Shown here in pieces: positions 1,767-10,545 of a stretch of DNA of 44,782 nt (position 1 is its first letter; every line of letters starts with the position of its first letter). The stretch lies in IMG/VR virus record IMGVR_UViG_3300045988_061090, one strand, 5' to 3'. The position numbers and the translations under genes are program-made. The stretch comes from a virus. Below the pieces are notes generated by a model that worked only from the letters and a program-made list of their open reading frames with translations, searched no databases and was not told where the DNA came from.

Positions 1767-3215
1767 GTGAAGAAAGTGGGGCTGATAACATGGATAAAGG
1801 CGGTGTGGAATAAGTTGTTCAGGAAAGAGATAGAAGAACGGTTTCAGGCAGATATACAGCTTTCGTCTGTTATGGAATCGGCGATAAACAAATACTACAA
1901 TATTACAGCCGGAAAGCCGCCTTGGCTAGACCCGGACGATGACATTGAGAGCATTAACTTTGCCGGATACATTAACGACGTGACAGCCGGACTTGTGACG
2001 CTTGATCTTGGTATTGATATTTCAGGCGGCGAGCGCGCGGAGTATTTGCAAAAGCAGGCTGACTATGTACTGGCGGTTATTACAGACAAGGTTTCAGAGG
2101 CTCTCGGGAATTGCGGTATTATGTTCAAACCGAACGGAAATAACGTAGATTACATAGAGCCGGGAAACTTTGCACCAACAGAGACGGACAGCAACGGCAA
2201 TATTCTTGGGTGTGTGTTCCAGAGCCAGATAGACCGGGGAGACTGGTGTTATACTCGGCTAGAGTGGCACAGATTTGAAAGTGCTGCACTGGAGGACGGA
2301 ACAGAGGGAAAAGTATACCGTATTACAAATTATGCATACAAGGCAAGGGCCGGCAGAATGGCAACAAATCAGTTGAGCATAGGAAACCCGTGCGAACTGA
2401 AGGAAGTAAGAGAGTGGGCAAACATTGAGCCGGATATATCCTTACTGAATGTGGAAATGCCGTTATTTGCATACTTTAAAAATCCCGCGCCGAATCGCAT
2501 TGATCGGACAAGCCCTTTAGGTGTTCCAGTGTGGCATAATGCGCTGAAAGAGTTAAAAGACCTTGACATAGCGTGGAGCCGGAAGTCTGGCGAGGTTGAG
2601 GACAGTAAGCACATGACCTTTGTCGCGCAGGCGGCTATCCAATACGCAGATCAGCATGATGTTAAACTGCCGAGGTTTCTTCGGGGCTTGGAAATGGGGG
2701 TGGATGCAGATAGTACGGTACATGAGCATGTGTCTACTCTGCTCACAGATCAGCGTATCAAGGATATAAATTCTATCCTAGCTATGATTTCCACAAAATG
2801 TGGCTTCTCGCAGGGAATGTTCGTACTGGACGAAAAAACAGGCATGATGACTGCGACACAGGTAGAGGCGGACGATCAGGAGACAATCCGAACGATCAAA
2901 AATATCCGTGACGTTTTGCAGGACACAATCACGCAACTGCTATATGGTTGCAATGTTATGGCGGACTTGTACAGCGACACGCCGCCGGAACTATGGGAAA
3001 CGCTCAAAGAGGGTATGTCTTTCAGTTTTGGAGATATTACATACAACTATCAGGAGGATATGGCAAACTGGTGGAAATATAGGATTCAAGGCGATGTGCC
3101 GCCGTGGATGTATTATGTCAAATTTGAAAAAATGAGCGAGGAAGAAGCAAAGAAAATGGTTGAAGAAGCGCAGCCGAAAGAGGACACGCTTTTCAATAAA
3201 TTTCAAGAGGAATAA
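1767..3215 (+). CDS. Portal protein (SPP1 gp6-like)
   Basis: 482-aa ORF after the terminase genes, with the size and acidic C-terminus typical of portals. The start is uncertain: GTG 1767 abuts the RBS and GTG 1776 is better spaced. Confidence 0.75.
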   Translation: MKKVGLITWIKAVWNKLFRKEIEERFQADIQLSSVMESAINKYYNITAGKPPWLDPDDDIESINFAGYINDVTAGLVTLDLGIDISGGERAEYLQKQADYVLAVITDKVSEALGNCGIMFKPNGNNVDYIEPGNFAPTETDSNGNILGCVFQSQIDRGDWCYTRLEWHRFESAALEDGTEGKVYRITNYAYKARAGRMATNQLSIGNPCELKEVREWANIEPDISLLNVEMPLFAYFKNPAPNRIDRTSPLGVPVWHNALKELKDLDIAWSRKSGEVEDSKHMTFVAQAAIQYADQHDVKLPRFLRGLEMGVDADSTVHEHVSTLLTDQRIKDINSILAMISTKCGFSQGMFVLDEKTGMMTATQVEADDQETIRTIKNIRDVLQDTITQLLYGCNVMADLYSDTPPELWETLKEGMSFSFGDITYNYQEDMANWWKYRIQGDVPPWMYYVKFEKMSEEEAKKMVEEAQPKEDTLFNKFQEE

Positions 3216-3221
3216 AGGAGA

Positions 3222-3455
3222 ATGATTATGAAGAATAAAGAGTATTGGATTAACTGGGTAAAGGCAGCAGGAATAAGAGCTGTTAAGACAGTGGCGCAGT
3301 CGGCTATTGCAGCTATTGGCGCGTCTGCTATGATTTCAGAAGTTGATTGGGTAATGGTAGCGTCTACCGCTGTACTGGCAGGCGTGGTATCAATTCTGAC
3401 AAGCATTGCAGGACTGCCGGAAGTAAGCATACCGAAAATTGAAACGGAGGAATAG
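3222..3455 (+). CDS. Holin-like membrane protein (phiLC3 / Phage_holin_1-like)
   Basis: The pattern IRAVKTVAQSAIAAIGA...VDW...VVSILTSIAG resembles the lactococcal phiLC3/r1t holin family, as recalled from memory. It has two hydrophobic segments. ATG 3228 has better RBS spacing than ATG 3222. Confidence 0.55.
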   Translation: MIMKNKEYWINWVKAAGIRAVKTVAQSAIAAIGASAMISEVDWVMVASTAVLAGVVSILTSIAGLPEVSIPKIETEE

Positions 3456-3456
3456 G

Positions 3457-4671
3457 GTGTTAACACCAGAATACCTATACCGCATAACAGAAAATGCAGA
3501 GGATATTGCTTCTCAGCTCCATAAAAACATCATAGACAAGATTATAGCCCGTATGATGGCGAGAATCGGACGGGGCGAGGAATATCTTCTGACCGCAACG
3601 GACAAGTGGCAAATTGAAGTATTGCAGGAAGCAGGCTATCTCTTAGAGGACATACAGCAGGAGCTTTCCGACAAGACCAAAAAGCAAGTGCAGGAAATCA
3701 AAGAAGCTATGGAGGAAGCCGGGGTTATAGCTTTACAGTGGGACGATAAAATCTATCAGGCTGCCGGGCTGTCCCCTGTTCCCCTCTTGCAATCTCCGGC
3801 ACTTATGCGTATCATGCAGCGCAACTATGAAGCTACCGCTGGAGAATGGCGGAACTTTACGAAAACTACCGCGAACAAAGCACAGAGGCTTTTTATCAAT
3901 CAGATGGATAATGCCTATAATATGGTCGTTTCCGGGGCTGTATCGTACACAGAGGCGGTCAGGGATGTATTAAAAGAGGTATCAGACGCAGGGATGAAAG
4001 TAAACTATCCATCCGGTTATAAGATGAGTATAGAATCCGCAACAATGATGATTTTAAGAACAGGAATCAGTCAGGCGGCTGGCGATATTTCGATAGAACG
4101 TATGAAAGAAATGAACTGGGATATTATTCTTGTCAGCTCTCACTTGGGTGCGCGTGTCGGAGATGGCGGACAAAATCCGGGTAATCATAGTTGGTGGCAA
4201 GGGAAATTTTACAGCCGAAGCGGAAAAGATGAGCGTTTTCCTCCATTTTCGGAAACAGGATACGGAACCATTACAGGATTGTGTGGCGTGAATTGTAGAC
4301 ATTCTTTTGGGGCGGGCGACGGAGAAAATAACCCATTTGAGCAATACGACACAAAGGAAAATCAAAAAGTCTATGAGAAACAACAGAGGCAGCGGACACT
4401 TGAGCGTCGTGTACGCGATACCAAGCGGAAAATCCAGAATATGCAAACAGCGATTGATAATTGCAAAGACGAAAAGCTGAAATTTGAGTTACAGCAGGAT
4501 TTTGACAGAAAGTCATATCTGCTGAAAAAGCAGAACGCCGTGTATAAGAAATATTGTGAGGACAACAACCTAAAGCCATATGCGGAAAGATTGAAAATAG
4601 CGAAATGGGATAGGGAACAGGCTATGAAAGTGGCAGGAGCTGCAAGGAGGTATGAAAATGCGAAAAAATGA
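3457..4671 (+). CDS. Head morphogenesis / minor capsid protein (SPP1 gp7 / Mu F-like)
   Basis: GTG 3457 lies 6 nt after GGAGG. The motif GLCGVNCRHSF and the position after the portal gene fit this family. The C-terminus is basic and coiled-coil. Confidence 0.7.
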   Translation: MLTPEYLYRITENAEDIASQLHKNIIDKIIARMMARIGRGEEYLLTATDKWQIEVLQEAGYLLEDIQQELSDKTKKQVQEIKEAMEEAGVIALQWDDKIYQAAGLSPVPLLQSPALMRIMQRNYEATAGEWRNFTKTTANKAQRLFINQMDNAYNMVVSGAVSYTEAVRDVLKEVSDAGMKVNYPSGYKMSIESATMMILRTGISQAAGDISIERMKEMNWDIILVSSHLGARVGDGGQNPGNHSWWQGKFYSRSGKDERFPPFSETGYGTITGLCGVNCRHSFGAGDGENNPFEQYDTKENQKVYEKQQRQRTLERRVRDTKRKIQNMQTAIDNCKDEKLKFELQQDFDRKSYLLKKQNAVYKKYCEDNNLKPYAERLKIAKWDREQAMKVAGAARRYENAKK

Positions 4672-5997: not shown

Positions 5998-6015
5998 TAC
6001 TTTCATGATACTTTT

Positions 6016-6050
6016 CAAGAACTTTGACGAACTGTCAGAGTTCTTTTTTT
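6016..6050 (+). terminator. Rho-independent terminator
   Basis: The stem pairs aagaactttgac with gtcagagttctt (6017-6028 / 6034-6045, imperfect) and is followed by a T7 run. Confidence 0.7.
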
Positions 6051-6092
6051 ATGCCTAAAATTAAGGTATAGAAACAGGAACGGAGGAAGATC

Positions 6093-6584
6093 ATGGCAGG
6101 CTATATGAACAATGGATATGGCGGATATGCACCAACACCATATTATAACCCGTTGCAGCCGCAAATGGACAGGCTGGCACAAATGCAGGCGCAGTATCAG
6201 CCGACACAACAGCCACAAGTGCCGCAGACAAATCAAGGTATTTTGTGGGTACAGGGAGAAGCAGGAGCAAAGTCCTATCTGGTGGCGCCGAATACAAGCG
6301 TGTTGCTCATGGATAGCGAGAATGAGCGGTTTTACATCAAGACAACAGATTCAGCCGGCATGCCAACGCTCCGAACGTTTGAGTATAAAGAAGCTGGTGT
6401 GAATGCGCCAGAGCCGCAGAAACAGCCTGAAATTAGTTTAGACGATAAATATGTCACCCGGCAGGAATACGACGATTTACGGGGCAAATATGAAGAACTA
6501 TATGGGCTTTTAGAGGCAGCAACAAAGCCGGCAGCAAATAATCACAGAAAGGGTGAGCAAAACAATGGGAAATCCTCTGTTTAA
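6093..6584 (+). CDS. Q/P/Y-rich N-terminus protein with a conserved beta-rich core, unknown function
   Basis: 163 aa with RBS GGAGGAAG. The N-terminus is low complexity, followed by GILWVQGEAGAKSYLVAPNTSVLLMDSENERFYIK. Confidence 0.6.
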   Translation: MAGYMNNGYGGYAPTPYYNPLQPQMDRLAQMQAQYQPTQQPQVPQTNQGILWVQGEAGAKSYLVAPNTSVLLMDSENERFYIKTTDSAGMPTLRTFEYKEAGVNAPEPQKQPEISLDDKYVTRQEYDDLRGKYEELYGLLEAATKPAANNHRKGEQNNGKSSV

Positions 6585-6786
6585 TATGTTGGGTGGCGGT
6601 ATGCCGCAGAATCCCATGAACAAAATGATTCAAGATTATAAGAAATTCCGTCAGGAGATGCAGGGCAAGAACCCGCAGGAAGAAATCAATAAAATGTTGC
6701 AGTCTGGGAAACTGAATCAAAATCAGCTCGACCAGATTCAGCAGAAAGCCCAGCAAATGAAGGGATTATTTAAAGGACTATTTTAG
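6565..6786 (+). CDS. Small Q/M/N-rich protein
   Basis: ATG 6565 follows an AAGGGTGAG RBS. 73 aa with helical Q-rich composition. Confidence 0.5.
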   Translation: MGNPLFNMLGGGMPQNPMNKMIQDYKKFRQEMQGKNPQEEINKMLQSGKLNQNQLDQIQQKAQQMKGLFKGLF

Positions 6787-6840
6787 TACATAAATCAATG
6801 CGCATGATTTTGTAAATATATTTTAAAGGAGTAAAAGACT

Positions 6841-7174
6841 ATGACAGACGGTTTAACTGCTTCTGACGTTGCTGTATTGACTGGCAACAATGGAAGAAAT
6901 AATGACGGCTGGGGTGGAGATGGCTGTTGGTGGATCATTCTCTTCCTCATTTTCGGAATGTTTGGCTGGGGCGGTTACGGCAACGGCTGGGGCGGAAATG
7001 GTGGAGCAAATTCTCCAGCGTTCCAAGGCTATGCGACACGTGCTGATCTCGATGCAGCGCTGTCCACACAAGGAATCGAAAGCGGAATCCAGAATATTTC
7101 TACACAGCTTTGTAATGGATTCGCTGGTATAAATTCCAATATCTCTAATCTGGGGTATCAGCTTCAGCAGTGCT
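6841..7174 (+). CDS. Gly/Trp/Cys-rich membrane protein, exon 1. The predicted spliced product is 220 aa.
   Basis: The ORF starts after a GGAG RBS. A TM segment is flanked by GW/GY/GN repeats. The predicted 5' splice site lies after T7174 (see the intron feature). Confidence 0.65.
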
Positions 7175-8456
7175 TAAATAGGTTCAAAAAAGCCATAATG
7201 AATCTGTTTACGAAAAAAGTAAACGCAGTAGGCACTTACGCATAGTAATATGCGTTGGCAATCGGGAGAATTGCTGGAAAGTCTAAGTACACATATTTAC
7301 TTTCGCATTATTTTAATGTATAATTAAAATATAAATTGCGGAGGTAAACTATAATATGTATTATGTATATGAATGGTTTATAAAAGAAACTGGGGAAGTT
7401 ATATATGTTGGCAAAGGAACACATAATCGGTATAAAGTAAGAAAGCATAATAGATTCTTTAATGACATGATAAAGCGATTTGATTGCGATAGTCGCATAA
7501 TCAAAGAGTTTGAAGATGAAAAAGCTGCTTTTGAGTATGAATATGACAGAATAAATGAATTACGTCTAACTGGACAGTGTGTATGCAATATATATAATGG
7601 TGGAACCGGAGGTACAACTTCTTGGTGGGATGATAATAGGCGAAAATGGTATTCGGAACATAATACCATGAAATCGGAAAGACAGAGAAAAAGAATGTCT
7701 GAGAAAAATCCCATGAAAGACAAAAAAGTAAGCAACCATGTAAATTCAAAAAAACGCAGATTGGTGATTATTAATGAAAAAGAATATGAATCGGTCAAAG
7801 CGGCAATGAAAGAATATGGCGTAGCTTACGGAACTATAAAAAAATGGTGCGAAAAAGGAATAAATCCAAGTGGAGAAAAATGTAGATATAAGGACTCTAC
7901 ACAAGCTGTGTTTGACGGAAAAAGATATAATAAAGGCGGATGTAGACCGTTGCTATATAGAGGAGAAACATTTGAGAGTCCGATAGATTTAGCAAAAATT
8001 TTAGGAATACATCATTCTACGATTTGCAAATGGGCTAAACGAGGATTTGACCCAGACGGAAACGAATGTAGGTATCTTGATGACACACAAAAGCACATTT
8101 TTAAAAGATGGGTCAACGGAGAAACAATAAAGAAACCTATTTGGGTAAATGGAGTTTGGTATCCATCAAAGGCAGAAGCCGAGAAACAGCTTGGATTGTC
8201 AAAAGGATATTTAGCACCATATATAGCAGGAACCAGGAAAAACAAAAAATACATTTGTGTATATGATAATCAGCAGCCGAGCCAGACGAAATCCGATAAT
8301 AGTAGTCTGGAAGGTTCAACGACTAACGAGTGAGGACGGAAACCAATAATCTCGACACGAGTACCCGACTCCTATTTTATAGGATGAAGATATAGTCTGA
8401 ACTGCCGAGGAAACCGGCAGAAGTATAGGATAAAGAGCCTATACGTTAACATGATG
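7175..8456 (+). mobile_element. Group I intron (1282 nt) carrying a GIY-YIG homing endonuclease ORF
   Basis: A P-like element AATTGCTGGAAAG lies at 7269-7281, an R-like CCCGACT at 8364-8370 and an S-like AAGATATAGTC at 8387-8397. Hairpins occupy 8370-8384, 8402-8420 and 8423-8444. P1 pairs exon agtgcT (7169-7174) with Ggcact (7231-7236), giving a U.G pair at the splice site. P10 pairs cgcagt (7224-7229) with exon-2 gctgtg (8457-8462). The terminal G is G8456. Confidence 0.75.
7356..8333 (+). CDS. GIY-YIG homing endonuclease
   Basis: The N-terminus YVYEW...GEVIYVGKG...R...N matches the GIY-YIG motif. Three repeated HTH-like DNA-binding modules follow (YESVKAAMKEYGV.., FESPIDLAKILGI.., YPSKAEAEKQLGL..). 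The gene is AT-rich relative to its flanks. Confidence 0.85.
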   Translation: MYYVYEWFIKETGEVIYVGKGTHNRYKVRKHNRFFNDMIKRFDCDSRIIKEFEDEKAAFEYEYDRINELRLTGQCVCNIYNGGTGGTTSWWDDNRRKWYSEHNTMKSERQRKRMSEKNPMKDKKVSNHVNSKKRRLVIINEKEYESVKAAMKEYGVAYGTIKKWCEKGINPSGEKCRYKDSTQAVFDGKRYNKGGCRPLLYRGETFESPIDLAKILGIHHSTICKWAKRGFDPDGNECRYLDDTQKHIFKRWVNGETIKKPIWVNGVWYPSKAEAEKQLGLSKGYLAPYIAGTRKNKKYICVYDNQQPSQTKSDNSSLEGSTTNE

Positions 8457-8785
8457 GCTGTGATACACAACGCGCTGTTGACGGCGTAAATTACAACATG
8501 GCTATGCAGACCAATACGATTCAGCAGGCTCTTTGTAGTGGATTCCGCGATGTAATTGACAGTCAGAATGCAGGAACACAGCGTATTATTGACACGATCA
8601 CTCAGGATAAGATTCAGTCCTTGCAGACTGAGCTTCAATCCGCACAACTTCAGCTTGCGAATGTAAGTCAAACGAACAATATCATCAACACATTACGTCC
8701 GACTCCGGTTCCGGCTTATATTACTTGCAGTCCTTATCAGGCGGCTTATGGATATGGCAATGGGTGCGGAAACTGTGCTTGCTAA
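8457..8785 (+). CDS. Gly/Trp/Cys-rich membrane protein, exon 2
   Basis: The frame is open from 8450. Joining T7174 to G8457 keeps the frame and gives ..LGYQLQQCCCDTQRAVDG... The C-terminus is YGYGNGCGNCAC. Confidence 0.6.
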
Positions 8786-8908
8786 AAACTTCATATTGAG
8801 GTTTCTTCCCGGTACGTCCGGGTTGTTCGGCAAAAGCCGTTATTACTAATGTGAGAGGGTGGGCTGATAGTCTACCCTTTTGCAATATTATGAAGGGAGA
8901 ATGAAATT

Positions 8909-9304
8909 ATGGCAGATATGGTAAGCTTAGGAACACAGACAGTAAATGTCGGAGACAATGTTGCCTTTACTACAAATAGGATCGGTGGAAATTGTCAGAA
9001 TATACGTCATGAGCCGGGGAGCGGTAGAGTGACATTGCTGCCGGGTCTTTATAGGGTTGGCTTTAATGGAAACTTTTCAGCAGTGGCAGCCGGAACGTTA
9101 GCCTTTGAAATCAGGCAGGACGGAGATAGTATTCCTGGAAGTAAAATCATTACGACAGTTACGGCAGCAGGGTATGGAAACGGTTCTTCTACTGTGGAAG
9201 TCCGAGTAAATCGCCCATGTTGTTCTACCTTGAGCGTAAGAAACATTGGAACTGTGGCAGCTATCGTAAGTGACGCAAATCTCGTTGTGAGCAGAATAGG
9301 TTAA
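8909..9304 (+). CDS. BclA C-terminal / C1q-TNF-like jelly-roll protein
   Basis: 131 aa. The pattern LPGLYRVGFNGNF...GTLAFEIRQDGDSIPGS...DANLVVSRIG resembles the exosporium BclA C-terminal domain, but no collagen repeats are present. Confidence 0.4.
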   Translation: MADMVSLGTQTVNVGDNVAFTTNRIGGNCQNIRHEPGSGRVTLLPGLYRVGFNGNFSAVAAGTLAFEIRQDGDSIPGSKIITTVTAAGYGNGSSTVEVRVNRPCCSTLSVRNIGTVAAIVSDANLVVSRIG

Positions 9305-9316
9305 GGAGGACAGGCT

Positions 9317-9847
9317 ATGAGTTATAAATTAATGCAGAATATCAAAGAAGAGCTTGATAGAATCGCAGAAAAAGGTCTGAATACCTCAAACCTTGAAACT
9401 GCTTACAAGCTGATCGACATGTTAAAAGACATGGAAAATGTTGAATATTGGAAGTGTAAAGAGGAATATTATGACGCTGTTTTGGCAGAAATGGAAGGCG
9501 GCTATTCCGAAGCTAGAAAGCGTGACAGCATGGAGAGATATTCCCGTGATGGAATGATGCCAAATTATGACAATGACAATTCCTATCGTGGTACACGTGG
9601 AAAGCATTACGTCAGAGGCCACTACAGTCGCGGTAGAGACATGGACACATATAATCAGTACATGGATAAAAAGAACTCTTACAGAGCCGGAAAAGACATG
9701 GATTGTAAACAGAAAATGCTTGCAGCATTAGAGGAGCATATGGACGCTCTGACGGAAGAACTGGAAGGCATGAGCCGCGACGCTGACTGTCGTGAAGAAA
9801 GAGACACCATGAAGCGGTATATCGACAAATTAAGAGACATGATGTAA
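9317..9847 (+). CDS. Charged R/D/Y/M-rich helical protein, unknown function
   Basis: 176 aa with a strong GGAGGA RBS. It has helical ends around a low-complexity Y/R/G/D centre. Confidence 0.55.
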   Translation: MSYKLMQNIKEELDRIAEKGLNTSNLETAYKLIDMLKDMENVEYWKCKEEYYDAVLAEMEGGYSEARKRDSMERYSRDGMMPNYDNDNSYRGTRGKHYVRGHYSRGRDMDTYNQYMDKKNSYRAGKDMDCKQKMLAALEEHMDALTEELEGMSRDADCREERDTMKRYIDKLRDMM

Positions 9848-9853
9848 GCATGA

Positions 9854-9881
9854 GGGCGGTATCTTATGTTACCGCCTTTTA
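9854..9881 (+). terminator. Rho-independent terminator closing the cargo operon
   Basis: The stem pairs gggcggta with taccgcc(t) and is followed by tttt. Confidence 0.7.
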
Positions 9882-9889
9882 ATATGGGT

Positions 9890-9928
9890 AAATATGGGTA
9901 CAACATAATAAAAAAAATATGGTAAAAT
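9890..9928 (+). promoter_or_regulatory. Candidate phage-specific (late?) promoter: AAATATGGGTACAAC-N16-GGTAAAAT
   Basis: The same bipartite motif recurs at 44393..44432 with N17 spacing. Here the -10 is an extended TGGTAAAAT, and a tandem extra AATATGGGTA sits at 9881-9890. Confidence 0.4.
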
Positions 9929-9958
9929 TTAAATACAATATCGAAAGAGAGGCGGAAC

Positions 9959-10132
9959 ATGGTAAAGGAAAAATGGATTTATTGCCCTGTATGCAATAAT
10001 AAAACACGTATAAAAATACGCAAAGAAACTGTGGCAGAAAACCTACCAGTGTTTTGCCCTAAGTGTAAAATACAATCTATCATTGATATAAAGCCAGACT
10101 TTGAAATAGAAGTAAAAACTGATATTGTATAG
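9959..10132 (+). CDS. Cysteine-rich KTR zinc-ribbon protein (57 aa, below the ORF-track cutoff)
   Basis: Hand translation gives MVKEKWIYCPVCNNKTRIKIRKETVAENLPVFCPKCKIQSIIDI... The CPxC-x-KTR ... CPKC pattern matches the Cys_rich_KTR family. RBS is AGAGAGG. Confidence 0.65.
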   Translation: MVKEKWIYCPVCNNKTRIKIRKETVAENLPVFCPKCKIQSIIDIKPDFEIEVKTDIV

Positions 10133-10149
10133 AGCCAGTTGCCAGACAC

Positions 10150-10200
10150 AGAGCCAATGAACTTATCGGAAATTCCGACAGGTTTGTTGGCTCTTTTCTT
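10150..10200 (+). terminator. Possible terminator or structured element
   Basis: agagccaa (10150-57) pairs with ttggctct (10187-94) around an internal hairpin, followed by tttctt. The long loop lowers confidence. Confidence 0.35.
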
Positions 10201-10393
10201 ATTTTTGACACCTCCTTTCTTAGCACACGTCCTTAATAGAAACGGCTTTATGCCGGAGGTTGAAAAGCGGGTGCAATTTCCGGCGTGTGCATTAGGCTTA
10301 TCGCATTGAGCCTGATAATCAATGTACGGGTCTACCGGTCAAATAGCACCTTTGAACGGGTTATAAATGTTCTGCCGCTGTTTGGCGGCATTT

Positions 10394-10466
10394 TGGGACA
10401 TAGCGCAGTTGGTAGAGCACCTGTCTTATACACAGCAAGTCCCCGGTTCGATTCCGGGTGTCCCGA
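10394..10466 (+). tRNA. tRNA with anticodon UAU (tRNA-Ile reading AUA), no encoded CCA
   Basis: A manual cloverleaf fits: acceptor tgggaca/tgtcccg (U1.G72), D arm gcgc-agttggta-gagc, anticodon arm cctgt-cTTATac-acagc (one C:C mismatch), variable loop aagtc, and T arm cccgg-ttcgatt-ccggg. Confidence 0.7.
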
Positions 10467-10545
10467 TTACCCCGACAGAGGTTTATCTGTCTGAATCCAT
10501 TACCGCTGACGGGCGGTTAATAAGTAGACGTTTAGGAGGATTATT

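Follow-up and report, generated by a model that had tools for sequence, protein, structure and literature searches.

A Probable Mobile Group I Intron of Subgroup IA within Three Cysteine Codons of a Conserved Phage Gene

The viral record IMGVR_UViG_3300045988_061090 of the IMG/VR collection was analyzed over its full length of 44,782 nucleotides, which is termed the window in the following. Positions 7175-8456 most probably constitute a mobile group I intron of subgroup IA, placed within three Cys codons (TGC T|GC TGY) of a conserved phage gene that would encode a membrane-anchored, helix-rich protein of 220 amino acids (aa). From the sequence comparisons described below we estimate the probability of this reading at about 0.9. 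The window is of phage or prophage type with the gene order terminase, portal, minor head protein, several small genes, scaffold, capsid and tail genes. Its region 6841-8785 contains three open reading frames (ORFs) on the plus strand, namely 6841-7245 (134 aa), 7356-8333 (325 aa) and 8498-8785 (95 aa). These ORFs, and the motifs they encode (QLCNGF in ORF 6841-7245, QALCSGF in ORF 8498-8785), had been listed in a first-pass annotation of the DNA and were found at the same positions. Its proposal of a group I intron with a GIY-YIG homing endonuclease is supported by the covariation among relatives and by the scores that ORF-less relatives obtain in Rfam.

Insertion Site and Splice Junction

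Four syntenic intronless loci (L002-L005) are about 85% identical to the window and align on both sides of the insert. Window positions 5998-7167 align with 5142-6327 of L002 and positions 8474-10292 with 6352-8185 of the same locus. The 24 nt between the two L002 blocks match 7168-7174 plus 8457-8473 of the window one for one, and the extra sequence of the window therefore comprises exactly 1,282 bases (7175-8456). A further intronless allele, L001, reads CAGCAATGCTGCTGCGATAC and aligns to the spliced sequence CAGCAGTGCT|GCTGTGATAC free of gaps; the intronless site of L002 is CAGGATTGTTGCTGCCAGAC.

Joining of 7174 to 8457 is in frame and leads to a 220-aa protein with the sequence ...LGYQLQQCCCDTQRAVDG... 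at the junction. Among 108 in-frame U/G junction pairs with an open product, 7174/8456 alone yields ..QLQQCCCDT... With the spliced 220-aa protein as query 6,215 homologues were obtained. The best of them are uninterrupted, exactly 220 aa long and 97-98% identical over 100% of the query; across the junction they read ..QLQDCCCQTQRAVDG.. or ...NLGYQLQDCCCQTQRAVDGVNYNM..., compared to ...NLGYQLQQCCCDTQRAVDGVNYNM... in the spliced window product. An exact look-up of this product in the public protein collection gave no entry. The junction 7174|8457 had already been placed by the first-pass annotation, and it proved to be colinear with the uninterrupted 220-aa homologues as an exact 1,282-nt insertion. 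The comparison with such homologues that had been suggested there indeed gives CCC at the junction and 220 aa with 98% identity, with no gap at the DNA level in L001 and L002. Judged by these alignments, the halves 6841-7245 and 8498-8785 are parts of one gene and not independent genes.

Secondary Structure and Covariation

Relatives of the intron were gathered via the endonuclease protein and the conserved 24-mer GGCAAYCGGGWGAATTGCTGGAAA. This resulted in 125 pattern matches, spread over contigs from viruses, genomes and metagenomes, some contigs being counted in more than one collection. From these, 100 complete introns were extracted, which correspond to 41 distinct sequences after deletion of the ORF. 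A structure model of 81 pairs in 15 helices (Table 1) was drawn on the window copy and tested against 29 distinct family members, aligned after removal of the ORF. Standard pairs make up 92.8% of the 2,318 cells, compared to 33-40% if the 3' partners are slid by one to three columns. Compensatory changes, that is changes on both sides, occur in 46 of the 81 pairs, with P1, P10, P7 and P5a among the covarying helices; in P2, P6a, P7.1 and P9.1 every pair is compensatory. Observed pairing, covariation score and number of compensatory pairs were matched by none of 500 shuffles. In the window copy P1, P2, P4-P9.1 and P10 are formed entirely by standard pairs, the sole non-standard pair being A7267.A8363 in P3. 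RNAalifold, blind to the model, recovered P10, P2, P4, P6a, P7.1, P7.2, P8, P9 and P9.1.

Two copies of the intron, L068 (324 nt) and L083, occur without an ORF. With the full model of the Rfam family RF00028 (Intron_gpI) they obtained 101.7 and 96.1 bits, respectively, and their P element was aligned to the P4 5' strand of the model. The ORF-deleted window intron shares 76% identity with L068 over the core. For the window itself, a search in E-value mode matched 8187-8420 to RF00028 with 32.3 bits. The 3' part by itself (8240-8420) fits model positions 71-253 with 37.3 bits (E=2e-8), where J6/7-P7, J8/7-P7' and P9 are aligned at high posterior probability. Covariation across the 29 relatives together with the Rfam matches of the ORF-less copies supports the proposed structure far beyond chance.

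P1 is paired in 100% of the cells and its U.G wobble is found in 29 of 29 sequences. Most members have AGUGCU/GGCACU; variants are ACUGCU/GGCAGU in L061 (G-C to C-G), AGUGUU/GACACU in L096 and GCUGUU/GACAGC in the Clostridium phage CPQ4. For P10, the alignment pair 76-376 is G-C in 14, G-U in 8 and A-U in 6 sequences, and GCAGU/GCUGC is exchanged for ACAAU/GUUGU in L096. Such compensatory variants support both helices, which had been proposed in the first-pass annotation as AGUGCU/GGCACU with U7174.G7231 and as CGCAGU/GCUGUG following G8456. The P8- and P9-type hairpins mentioned there are likewise present and covary, and the sequences AATTGCTGGAAAG (7269-7281) and AAGATATAGTC (8387-8397), described as P-like and S-like, correspond to the classical P and S elements. 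One label had to be revised: CCCGACT, described as R-like, is found at 8364-8370, where it forms P3' and the start of P8, and the R element is instead GGTTCAACGACTA at 8313-8325.

Within the remaining core, U-A is replaced by C-G in P3 of five sequences, and the P7 pair A8319-U8398 by G-C, also in five sequences. The putative guanosine-binding pair G8321-C8397, located next to the bulged C8320, is invariant in 29 of 29 sequences. Assignment to subgroup IA is based on the position of P7.1 and P7.2 between the P7 5' strand and P3'.

Since MAFFT misplaces the register of P5/P5a in some rows, this helix was checked sequence by sequence. In 34 of 36 distinct variants a helix of 6-11 bp in the same register spans the whole ORF, joining the bases just after P4 with those just before Q. 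Compensatory variants of P5a comprise UACACA/UGUGUA, UUUGCA/UGCAAA, UUCGCA/UGCGAA and UUGACAAAU/AUUUGUCAA; in the ORF-less L068, P5a is a simple hairpin. A local P5 hairpin GAAAGU...ACUUUC at 7278-7306 was considered and dropped, because the long-range P5a covaries and equals the hairpin of L068.

The P1 loop of the window copy folds into two hairpins, AGGUUCA/UGAAUCU (7180-7186/7199-7205) and GUUUAC/GUAAAC (7206-7211/7219-7224), which are absent in the short-loop relatives L028 and L124. RNAalifold additionally pairs the invariant guide GGCACUU (7231-7237) with a conserved GAGUACC 5' of P3' (8358-8364; GAGUGCC in most relatives). This pairing may be a chance complement or an alternative that competes with P1.

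Table 1. Positions of exons, intron, RNA elements and endonuclease gene in the window.
Feature	Position	Strand	Remarks
Exon 1	6841-7174	+	111 codons + 1 nt; colinear with intronless homologues up to 7174
P1	7169-7174 / 7231-7236	+	AGUGCU/GGCACU; U7174.G7231 wobble at 5' splice site
Group I intron, subgroup IA, 1,282 nt (probable)	7175-8456	+	Exact insertion compared to L001-L005; RF00028; covariation
Continuation of exon-1 frame into intron, 23 codons (LNRFKKAIMNLFTKKVNAVGTYA)	7175-7245	+	TAG 7243-7245 at P2 apex
P1 extension, two hairpins in P1 loop	7180-7224	+	Minimum-free-energy fold of ORF-deleted construct
P10	7224-7229 / 8457-8462	+	CGCAGU/GCUGUG, directly after G8456
Internal guide sequence GGCACU (P1 3' strand)	7231-7236	+	
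P2 hairpin ACGCAUA-GUAA-UAUGCGU	7238-7244 / 7249-7255	+	All 7 pairs changed on both sides
P3	7262-7268 (UCGGGAG) / 8362-8368 (UACCCGA)	+	97% of cells paired
P element AAUUGCUGGAAAG: J3/4, P4 5' strand 7272-7277, J4/5	7269-7281	+	Family-invariant
P4	7272-7277 / 8270-8275	+	
P5	7281-7283 / 8265-8267	+	Long-range, closes over ORF
P5a	7287-7293 (GUACACA) / 8256-8262 (UGUGUAU)	+	3' strand inside endonuclease ORF
Promoter-like TTTACT-17 nt-TATAAT	7296-7324	+	Consensus scan, 10/12 matches; activity inferred
Ribosome-binding site GGAGG	7342-7346	+	9 nt before endonuclease ATG
Homing-endonuclease gene, 325 aa	7356-8333	+	GIY-YIG domain, then three NUMOD/helix-turn-helix modules; in P5a loop
Q element AAUCAGCAGCC: P4 3' strand 8270-8275 and P6 start	8268-8278	+	
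P6	8276-8278 / 8313-8315	+	
P6a	8282-8287 / 8305-8310	+	6/6 pairs compensatory, 98.8% of cells paired
R element GGUUCAACGACUA: J6/7 and P7 5' strand	8313-8325	+	Aligned to RF00028, high posterior probability
P7	8319, 8321-8325 / 8393-8398	+	C8320 bulged
P7.1	8327-8330 / 8351-8354	+	4/4 pairs compensatory, 100% of cells paired
P7.2	8334-8335 / 8343-8344	+	Recovered by RNAalifold
P8 hairpin	8370-8374 / 8380-8384	+	4/5 pairs compensatory
S element GAAGAUAUAGUCU: J8/7 and P7 3' strand 8393-8398	8386-8398	+	Family-invariant; fits RF00028 consensus
P9 hairpin CUGCCG-AGGAAAC-CGGCAG	8402-8407 / 8415-8420	+	3 pairs compensatory, 100% of cells paired
P9.1 hairpin GUAUAGG...CCUAUAC	8423-8429 / 8438-8444	+	7/7 pairs compensatory, 99.5% of cells paired
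Omega-G, last intron base	8456	+	G before exon 2 invariant in all copies
Exon 2	8457-8785	+	109 codons + stop; colinear with intronless homologues from 8457

Endonuclease Gene

The 325-aa protein matches PHROG 314 'homing endonuclease' (1.2e-14) and the Pfam family NUMOD1 (1e-7), and it belongs to a family of 659 clustered proteins. YVY (residues 3-5) and YVG (residues 17-19) are separated by 11 residues, and Y3, Y5, Y17, G19, R25, E62 and N78 are invariant in 22-25 relatives; this spacing fits the GIY-YIG motif. Two of 22 relatives match the Pfam GIY-YIG family with 3.5e-6, five match the I-TevI DNA-binding domain, and matches of the I-HmuI NUMOD-like type occur among the relatives as well. 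Comparison of the window protein with NCBIfam showed weak helix-turn-helix matches only. The AlphaFold model (pLDDT 81) consists of an N-terminal domain with the order beta-beta-alpha-beta-alpha, which fits the GIY-YIG fold, followed by three repeated strand-strand-helix-helix modules. With Foldseek this model was matched to the I-TevI catalytic domain 1ln0 (probability 0.84, target-normalised TM-score 0.57) and the GIY-YIG enzyme PD-T4-3 (0.96) as well as to the I-TevI DNA-binding domain 1i3j (0.96) and I-HmuI 1u3e (0.97). On this evidence, the endonuclease can be assigned to the GIY-YIG type with moderate-to-high confidence.

That the insert contains an endonuclease ORF had been correctly noticed in the first-pass annotation. 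The ORF, located in the P5a loop, is not a passive loop insert: its final ~26 codons (8256-8333) double as P5a', P5', P4', P6/P6a, J6/7 and the P7 5' strand. Residues 307-325 are the sole part of the model with a pLDDT below 50, and in L028 and CPQ4 the ORF ends earlier, at ...NQQPS*. Based on the low-confidence tail and the earlier stop, the end of the ORF is probably shaped by the RNA and not by the protein. According to literature, ORFs that extend into the intron core are a known arrangement (PMC3984707). GGAGG and TATAAT-like boxes are present in most relatives inspected. An extended -10 element (TGnTATAAT) was rejected for the putative endonuclease promoter, as the TG directly abuts TATAAT.

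Probable Homing

A second copy of the intron was found in the viral contig IMGVR_UViG_3300045988_094856 (L038), where 1281 of 1282 positions are identical to the window. The exon tracts 7151-7174 (24 nt) and 8457-8504 (48 nt) are identical in both contigs. Elsewhere, exon 1 as a whole is 63% identical, positions 8497-8600 of exon 2 are 59% identical with an indel block, and the surrounding genome shows 86-91% identity. Homing with co-conversion of short tracts is expected to leave just this pattern, a near-identical intron with short identical exon tracts in an otherwise diverged gene. The 5' boundary of the shared tract is located 24 nt before the insertion site (7150/7151). I-TevI-type enzymes cut upstream of their insertion site at about such a distance, and the boundary may hint at an I-TevI-like cut position, a resemblance that is suggestive only.

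All of the ~107 copies with both ends, a number that includes copies failing the extraction filters and inspected by eye, reside at TG(C/T) T|G(C/T) TG(C/T), the Cys-Cys-Cys motif of homologous genes. When 22 intronless homologues were aligned, no sequence deviated at the second or third Cys, and only one lacked the first. Intronless alleles occur in assemblies of [Clostridium] symbiosum and Blautia hydrogenotrophica. Exon 1 of two metagenome contigs, L096 and L123, contains a TAG codon in frame, four codons ahead of the splice site (..MLAN*NQC|); this copy could be a pseudogene or belong to a phage that reads TAG as sense.

Proposed Mechanism and Alternative Explanations

For the pathway proposed here the pairing and ligation steps are taken from the established group I mechanism; the present analysis contributes structure and consequences at the DNA level. 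In the pre-mRNA the guide GGCACU (7231-7236) would pair with the exon end AGUGCU, forming P1 with U.G at the 5' splice site. The core is predicted to fold into P3-P8, P4-P6, P7 with G8321-C8397 beside the bulged base, P7.1/P7.2, P9 and P9.1, and the long-range P5/P5a would unite the intron halves parted by the endonuclease gene. Free guanosine bound in P7 would then attack after U7174. Subsequently, CGCAGU (7224-7229) would pair with exon 2 as P10, omega-G8456 would enter the G site and the exons would be ligated, giving a product that reads ...QLQQC-C-CDTQ.... The GIY-YIG/NUMOD endonuclease, expressed from the gene in the P5a loop with its own GGAGG and promoter-like box, is proposed to cut intronless alleles in co-resident phages, after which repair would copy the intron with short exon tracts.

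Several observations weigh against this picture of a mobile, splicing intron. At the gathering score of RF00028 (50 bits), a search of the whole window against Rfam, a check suggested in the first-pass annotation, gave no group I match, and the 5' part by itself (7150-7310) gave no group I match to Rfam either. The window copy stays below the gathering score because the ~1-kb endonuclease gene lies inside the P5/P5a loop and cannot be spanned by the model. For the protein, the Pfam GIY-YIG family PF01541 is matched weakly (E=0.012, 16.4 bits, below the cut-off of 22.6), the endonuclease and a 22-member profile gave no meaningful sequence match to PDB chains, and the Foldseek E-values are weak (0.1-0.5 for the GIY-YIG matches), as expected for a multi-domain query. 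The frame of exon 1 crosses the guide sequence up to the P2 apex, and ribosomes could disturb P1. Splicing of the window copy is a prediction from sequence. Moreover, 'self'-splicing without helper factors is an assumption, since some phage group I introns splice in infected cells only and not in vitro (PMC11878797).

The open frame across P1 allows an additional interpretation, which is compatible with a mobile group I intron. Under this interpretation the intron would also be a switch: either a 134-aa isoform consisting of exon 1 and a basic tail of 23 residues is made, or travel of the ribosome to the stop is needed for folding, and splicing efficiency would set the ratio of two products or couple splicing to translation. 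The frame is open through P1 extension and guide up to a UAA or UAG in the P2 loop in 36 of 36 distinct 5' regions. Seven P1-loop lengths were observed (11, 50, 53, 56, 59, 68 and 71 nt), all of them 2 mod 3, for which the naive chance is (1/3)^6 = 0.0014; the length classes are related by descent and hence not fully independent. A stop closes the +1 frame right at the splice site in all sequences, and in most of them the +2 frame ends within ~50 nt. Third codon positions are the most variable ones in the intron-encoded continuation, and the exact 134-aa ORF is found on 207 public contigs. In-frame stops in phage introns are usually seen as ribosome-halting devices (PMC3984707).

Other observations speak against such a switch. 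The peptide is poorly conserved with mostly non-synonymous codon differences (766 vs 172 and 787 vs 189), and the P1-extension stretch also forms conserved RNA hairpins, which may partly cause the pattern. In addition, the more distant CPQ4 relative breaks the rule with a stop after three intron codons. We consider it rather unlikely that translation constrains the P1 extension, so that the frame always runs open to one set stop at the P2 apex and only indels in multiples of three occur, and that the intron is not phenotypically neutral; the switch itself is an equally tentative proposal. If it were true, unspliced mRNA would give a useful truncated, membrane-anchored isoform of 134 aa, resulting in a splicing-dependent isoform switch in a phage, or alternatively ribosome travel to a defined stop would be part of the folding pathway of the ribozyme.

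It is very improbable that the mobile intron proposed here is instead a splicing-dead relic in a permanently split gene or pseudogene, with two ORFs that are independent or non-functional. The low Rfam score of the window copy and the public records, which list the halves as separate hypothetical proteins (the exon-2 ORF on 306 contigs), would agree with a relic. The score is, however, accounted for by the ORF in the P5a loop. All helices of the window copy are intact except for one position in P3, and compensatory changes throughout the family indicate ongoing selection on the fold. Furthermore, ~100 copies have both exons undamaged and in frame, exon 2 lacks a ribosome-binding site of its own (no Shine-Dalgarno sequence can be read before its internal ATG at 8498), and two diverged genomes share the intron with 99.9% identity. 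A free-standing homing-endonuclease gene or another non-ribozyme insertion element that merely disrupts the gene has a negligible probability: free-standing GIY-YIG genes are common in phages, but here a complete group I core with covariation surrounds the ORF, and copies of the element that lack the ORF are located at the same site, by which this explanation is already refuted.

Comparison with Known Introns

The td intron of phage T4 with I-TevI is a group I intron of subgroup IA2 with a GIY-YIG endonuclease. Similar to td, the window intron is predicted to combine a group IA core including P7.1/P7.2 with an endonuclease gene placed in one of the peripheral loops of the P4-P6 domain, and to home with co-conversion of flanking exon sequence. 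The modular build of catalytic GIY-YIG domain, linker and DNA-binding modules is probably also shared, judging by the model matches to 1ln0 and 1i3j, whereas sequence similarity of the window endonuclease to I-TevI is not detectable by phmmer. The two introns differ in the host gene, which is a head-region gene of unknown function in the window and a nucleotide-metabolism gene in the case of td. The ORF lies in the P5a loop with its 3' end over P5a' to the P7 5' strand, in contrast to P6a in td, and in the window intron the exon-1 frame continues into a long P1 extension.

A cultured counterpart is located in CPQ4 (MZ401006.1, L006 1048-2790). Here, the same gene family is interrupted at the same CCC site (TGTT|GTTGC), the endonuclease is homologous, and the blastn similarity to the window covers the ORF and the 3' core, with 74.6% identity over the latter. 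By this resemblance in site and sequence, the CPQ4 intron is of the same lineage, in a cultured C. perfringens phage. Differences are the short P1 loop with its early stop and the P/J3-4 sequence, which is GAACTGCTGGGAC in CPQ4. In the CPQ4 record exon 1 and endonuclease are entered as hypothetical proteins, the intron is unannotated and exon 2 is missing from the gene list.

More than 100 phage group I introns have already been described (PMC11878797). Known examples are found in Bacillus phages, Bastillevirinae included (PMC11878797), and in the nrdF gene of the B. cereus group, which harbours an IA intron with an unconventional GIY-YIG endonuclease (PMC2248736). Like the window intron, these group I (IA) introns of phages or prophages interrupt protein-coding genes, and some of them carry an endonuclease gene. 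They differ in host genes and insertion sites, and the similarity is limited to the conserved catalytic core; unannotated stretches of the Bacillus phages Eyuki and Megatron are 76-80% similar to the 3' core of the window.

The 3' core (8256-8456) resembles unannotated stretches in the listed phage records, which comprise 63 of Streptococcus phages (most of them from S. thermophilus), 27 of Bacillus phages and 22 of Flavobacterium phages. Several crAss-like phages also match the 3' core, one of these matches adjoining a thymidylate-synthase gene. The 5' part of the intron (7175-7360) gave no blastn match among the phage records. From these similarities, public phage genomes appear to contain many related unannotated introns.

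In the Clostridium phage phiCP13O (JF767208.1, L007) the tape-measure gene ('minor tail protein') is annotated as CDS 406-1083 and 2151-3572. About 1.07 kb (1084-2154) separates the two halves, and the 3' end of this stretch (2001-2154) resembles the 3' core of the window intron. By this similarity, the insert is probably a further unannotated group I intron. The same split tape-measure pattern was observed in phiCP34O and vB_CpeS-17DYC. An Rfam search of the CPQ4 and phiCP13O loci at E<=0.01 gave no match, presumably also due to the insertion of an ORF. As the window copy shows, covariance-model scans at curated thresholds overlook introns with large ORFs.

A literature search found no description of the window intron or of introns in CPQ4. 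New in the present study are the intron lineage with its target gene, the P5a-loop ORF with its long overlap with the core, and the open-frame P1 extension. The element belongs to a well-known kind of mobile elements, of which it is one more unannotated case, and leaves the understanding of the mechanism unchanged. It adds a widespread lineage from gut phages of Firmicutes, for which ~100 contig stretches were fetched, to the phage group I introns and provides a clear natural case of homing accompanied by short co-conversion tracts. With CPQ4, a cultured phage is at hand for experiments on splicing, endonuclease and open frame.

The Interrupted Gene and Its Surroundings

The host gene is syntenic in related phages, where it has the minor head protein gene on one side and the scaffold/capsid genes on the other. 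Its product has a Gly/Trp-rich N-terminus with one hydrophobic helix, both of which are encoded by exon 1 together with the first QLCNGF motif, followed by long predicted helices and a Cys-rich C-terminus. It was assigned to PHROG 16490 (function unknown) with E=2.3e-62, and no match was obtained in Pfam and NCBIfam. Relatives of the host gene showed weak ZorA and MCPsignal matches with PADLOC and Pfam, which were read as noise of the coiled-coil type, and no functional label was adopted. With a pLDDT of 39.5 the AlphaFold model of the host protein is too poor for a fold search. The first-pass annotation had considered the host a cargo gene; this view could not be maintained for a conserved, syntenic head-region gene with more than 6,000 homologues that belongs to a PHROG. 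As conserved genes are the usual kind of target for homing introns, the choice of this gene is not unusual.

Recognition of the intron restores one gene of 220 aa from two 'hypothetical proteins', and a lineage fixed on a single site points to the Cys-Cys-Cys motif as that part of an abundant phage protein which is under the strongest constraint. The exon-2 ORF of the window equals a RefSeq protein of Blautia hydrogenotrophica.

Downstream, a RAGATH-21 RNA was found at 10222-10291 (83 bits in Rfam, with a gathering score of 70.3), followed by a tRNA-Ile with the anticodon UAU at 10393-10467. Both are situated between a gene for a 176-aa protein and the scaffold gene of the window. In the intronless loci L002-L005 a small Cys_rich_KTR ORF lies upstream of this RAGATH-21/tRNA-Ile spot.

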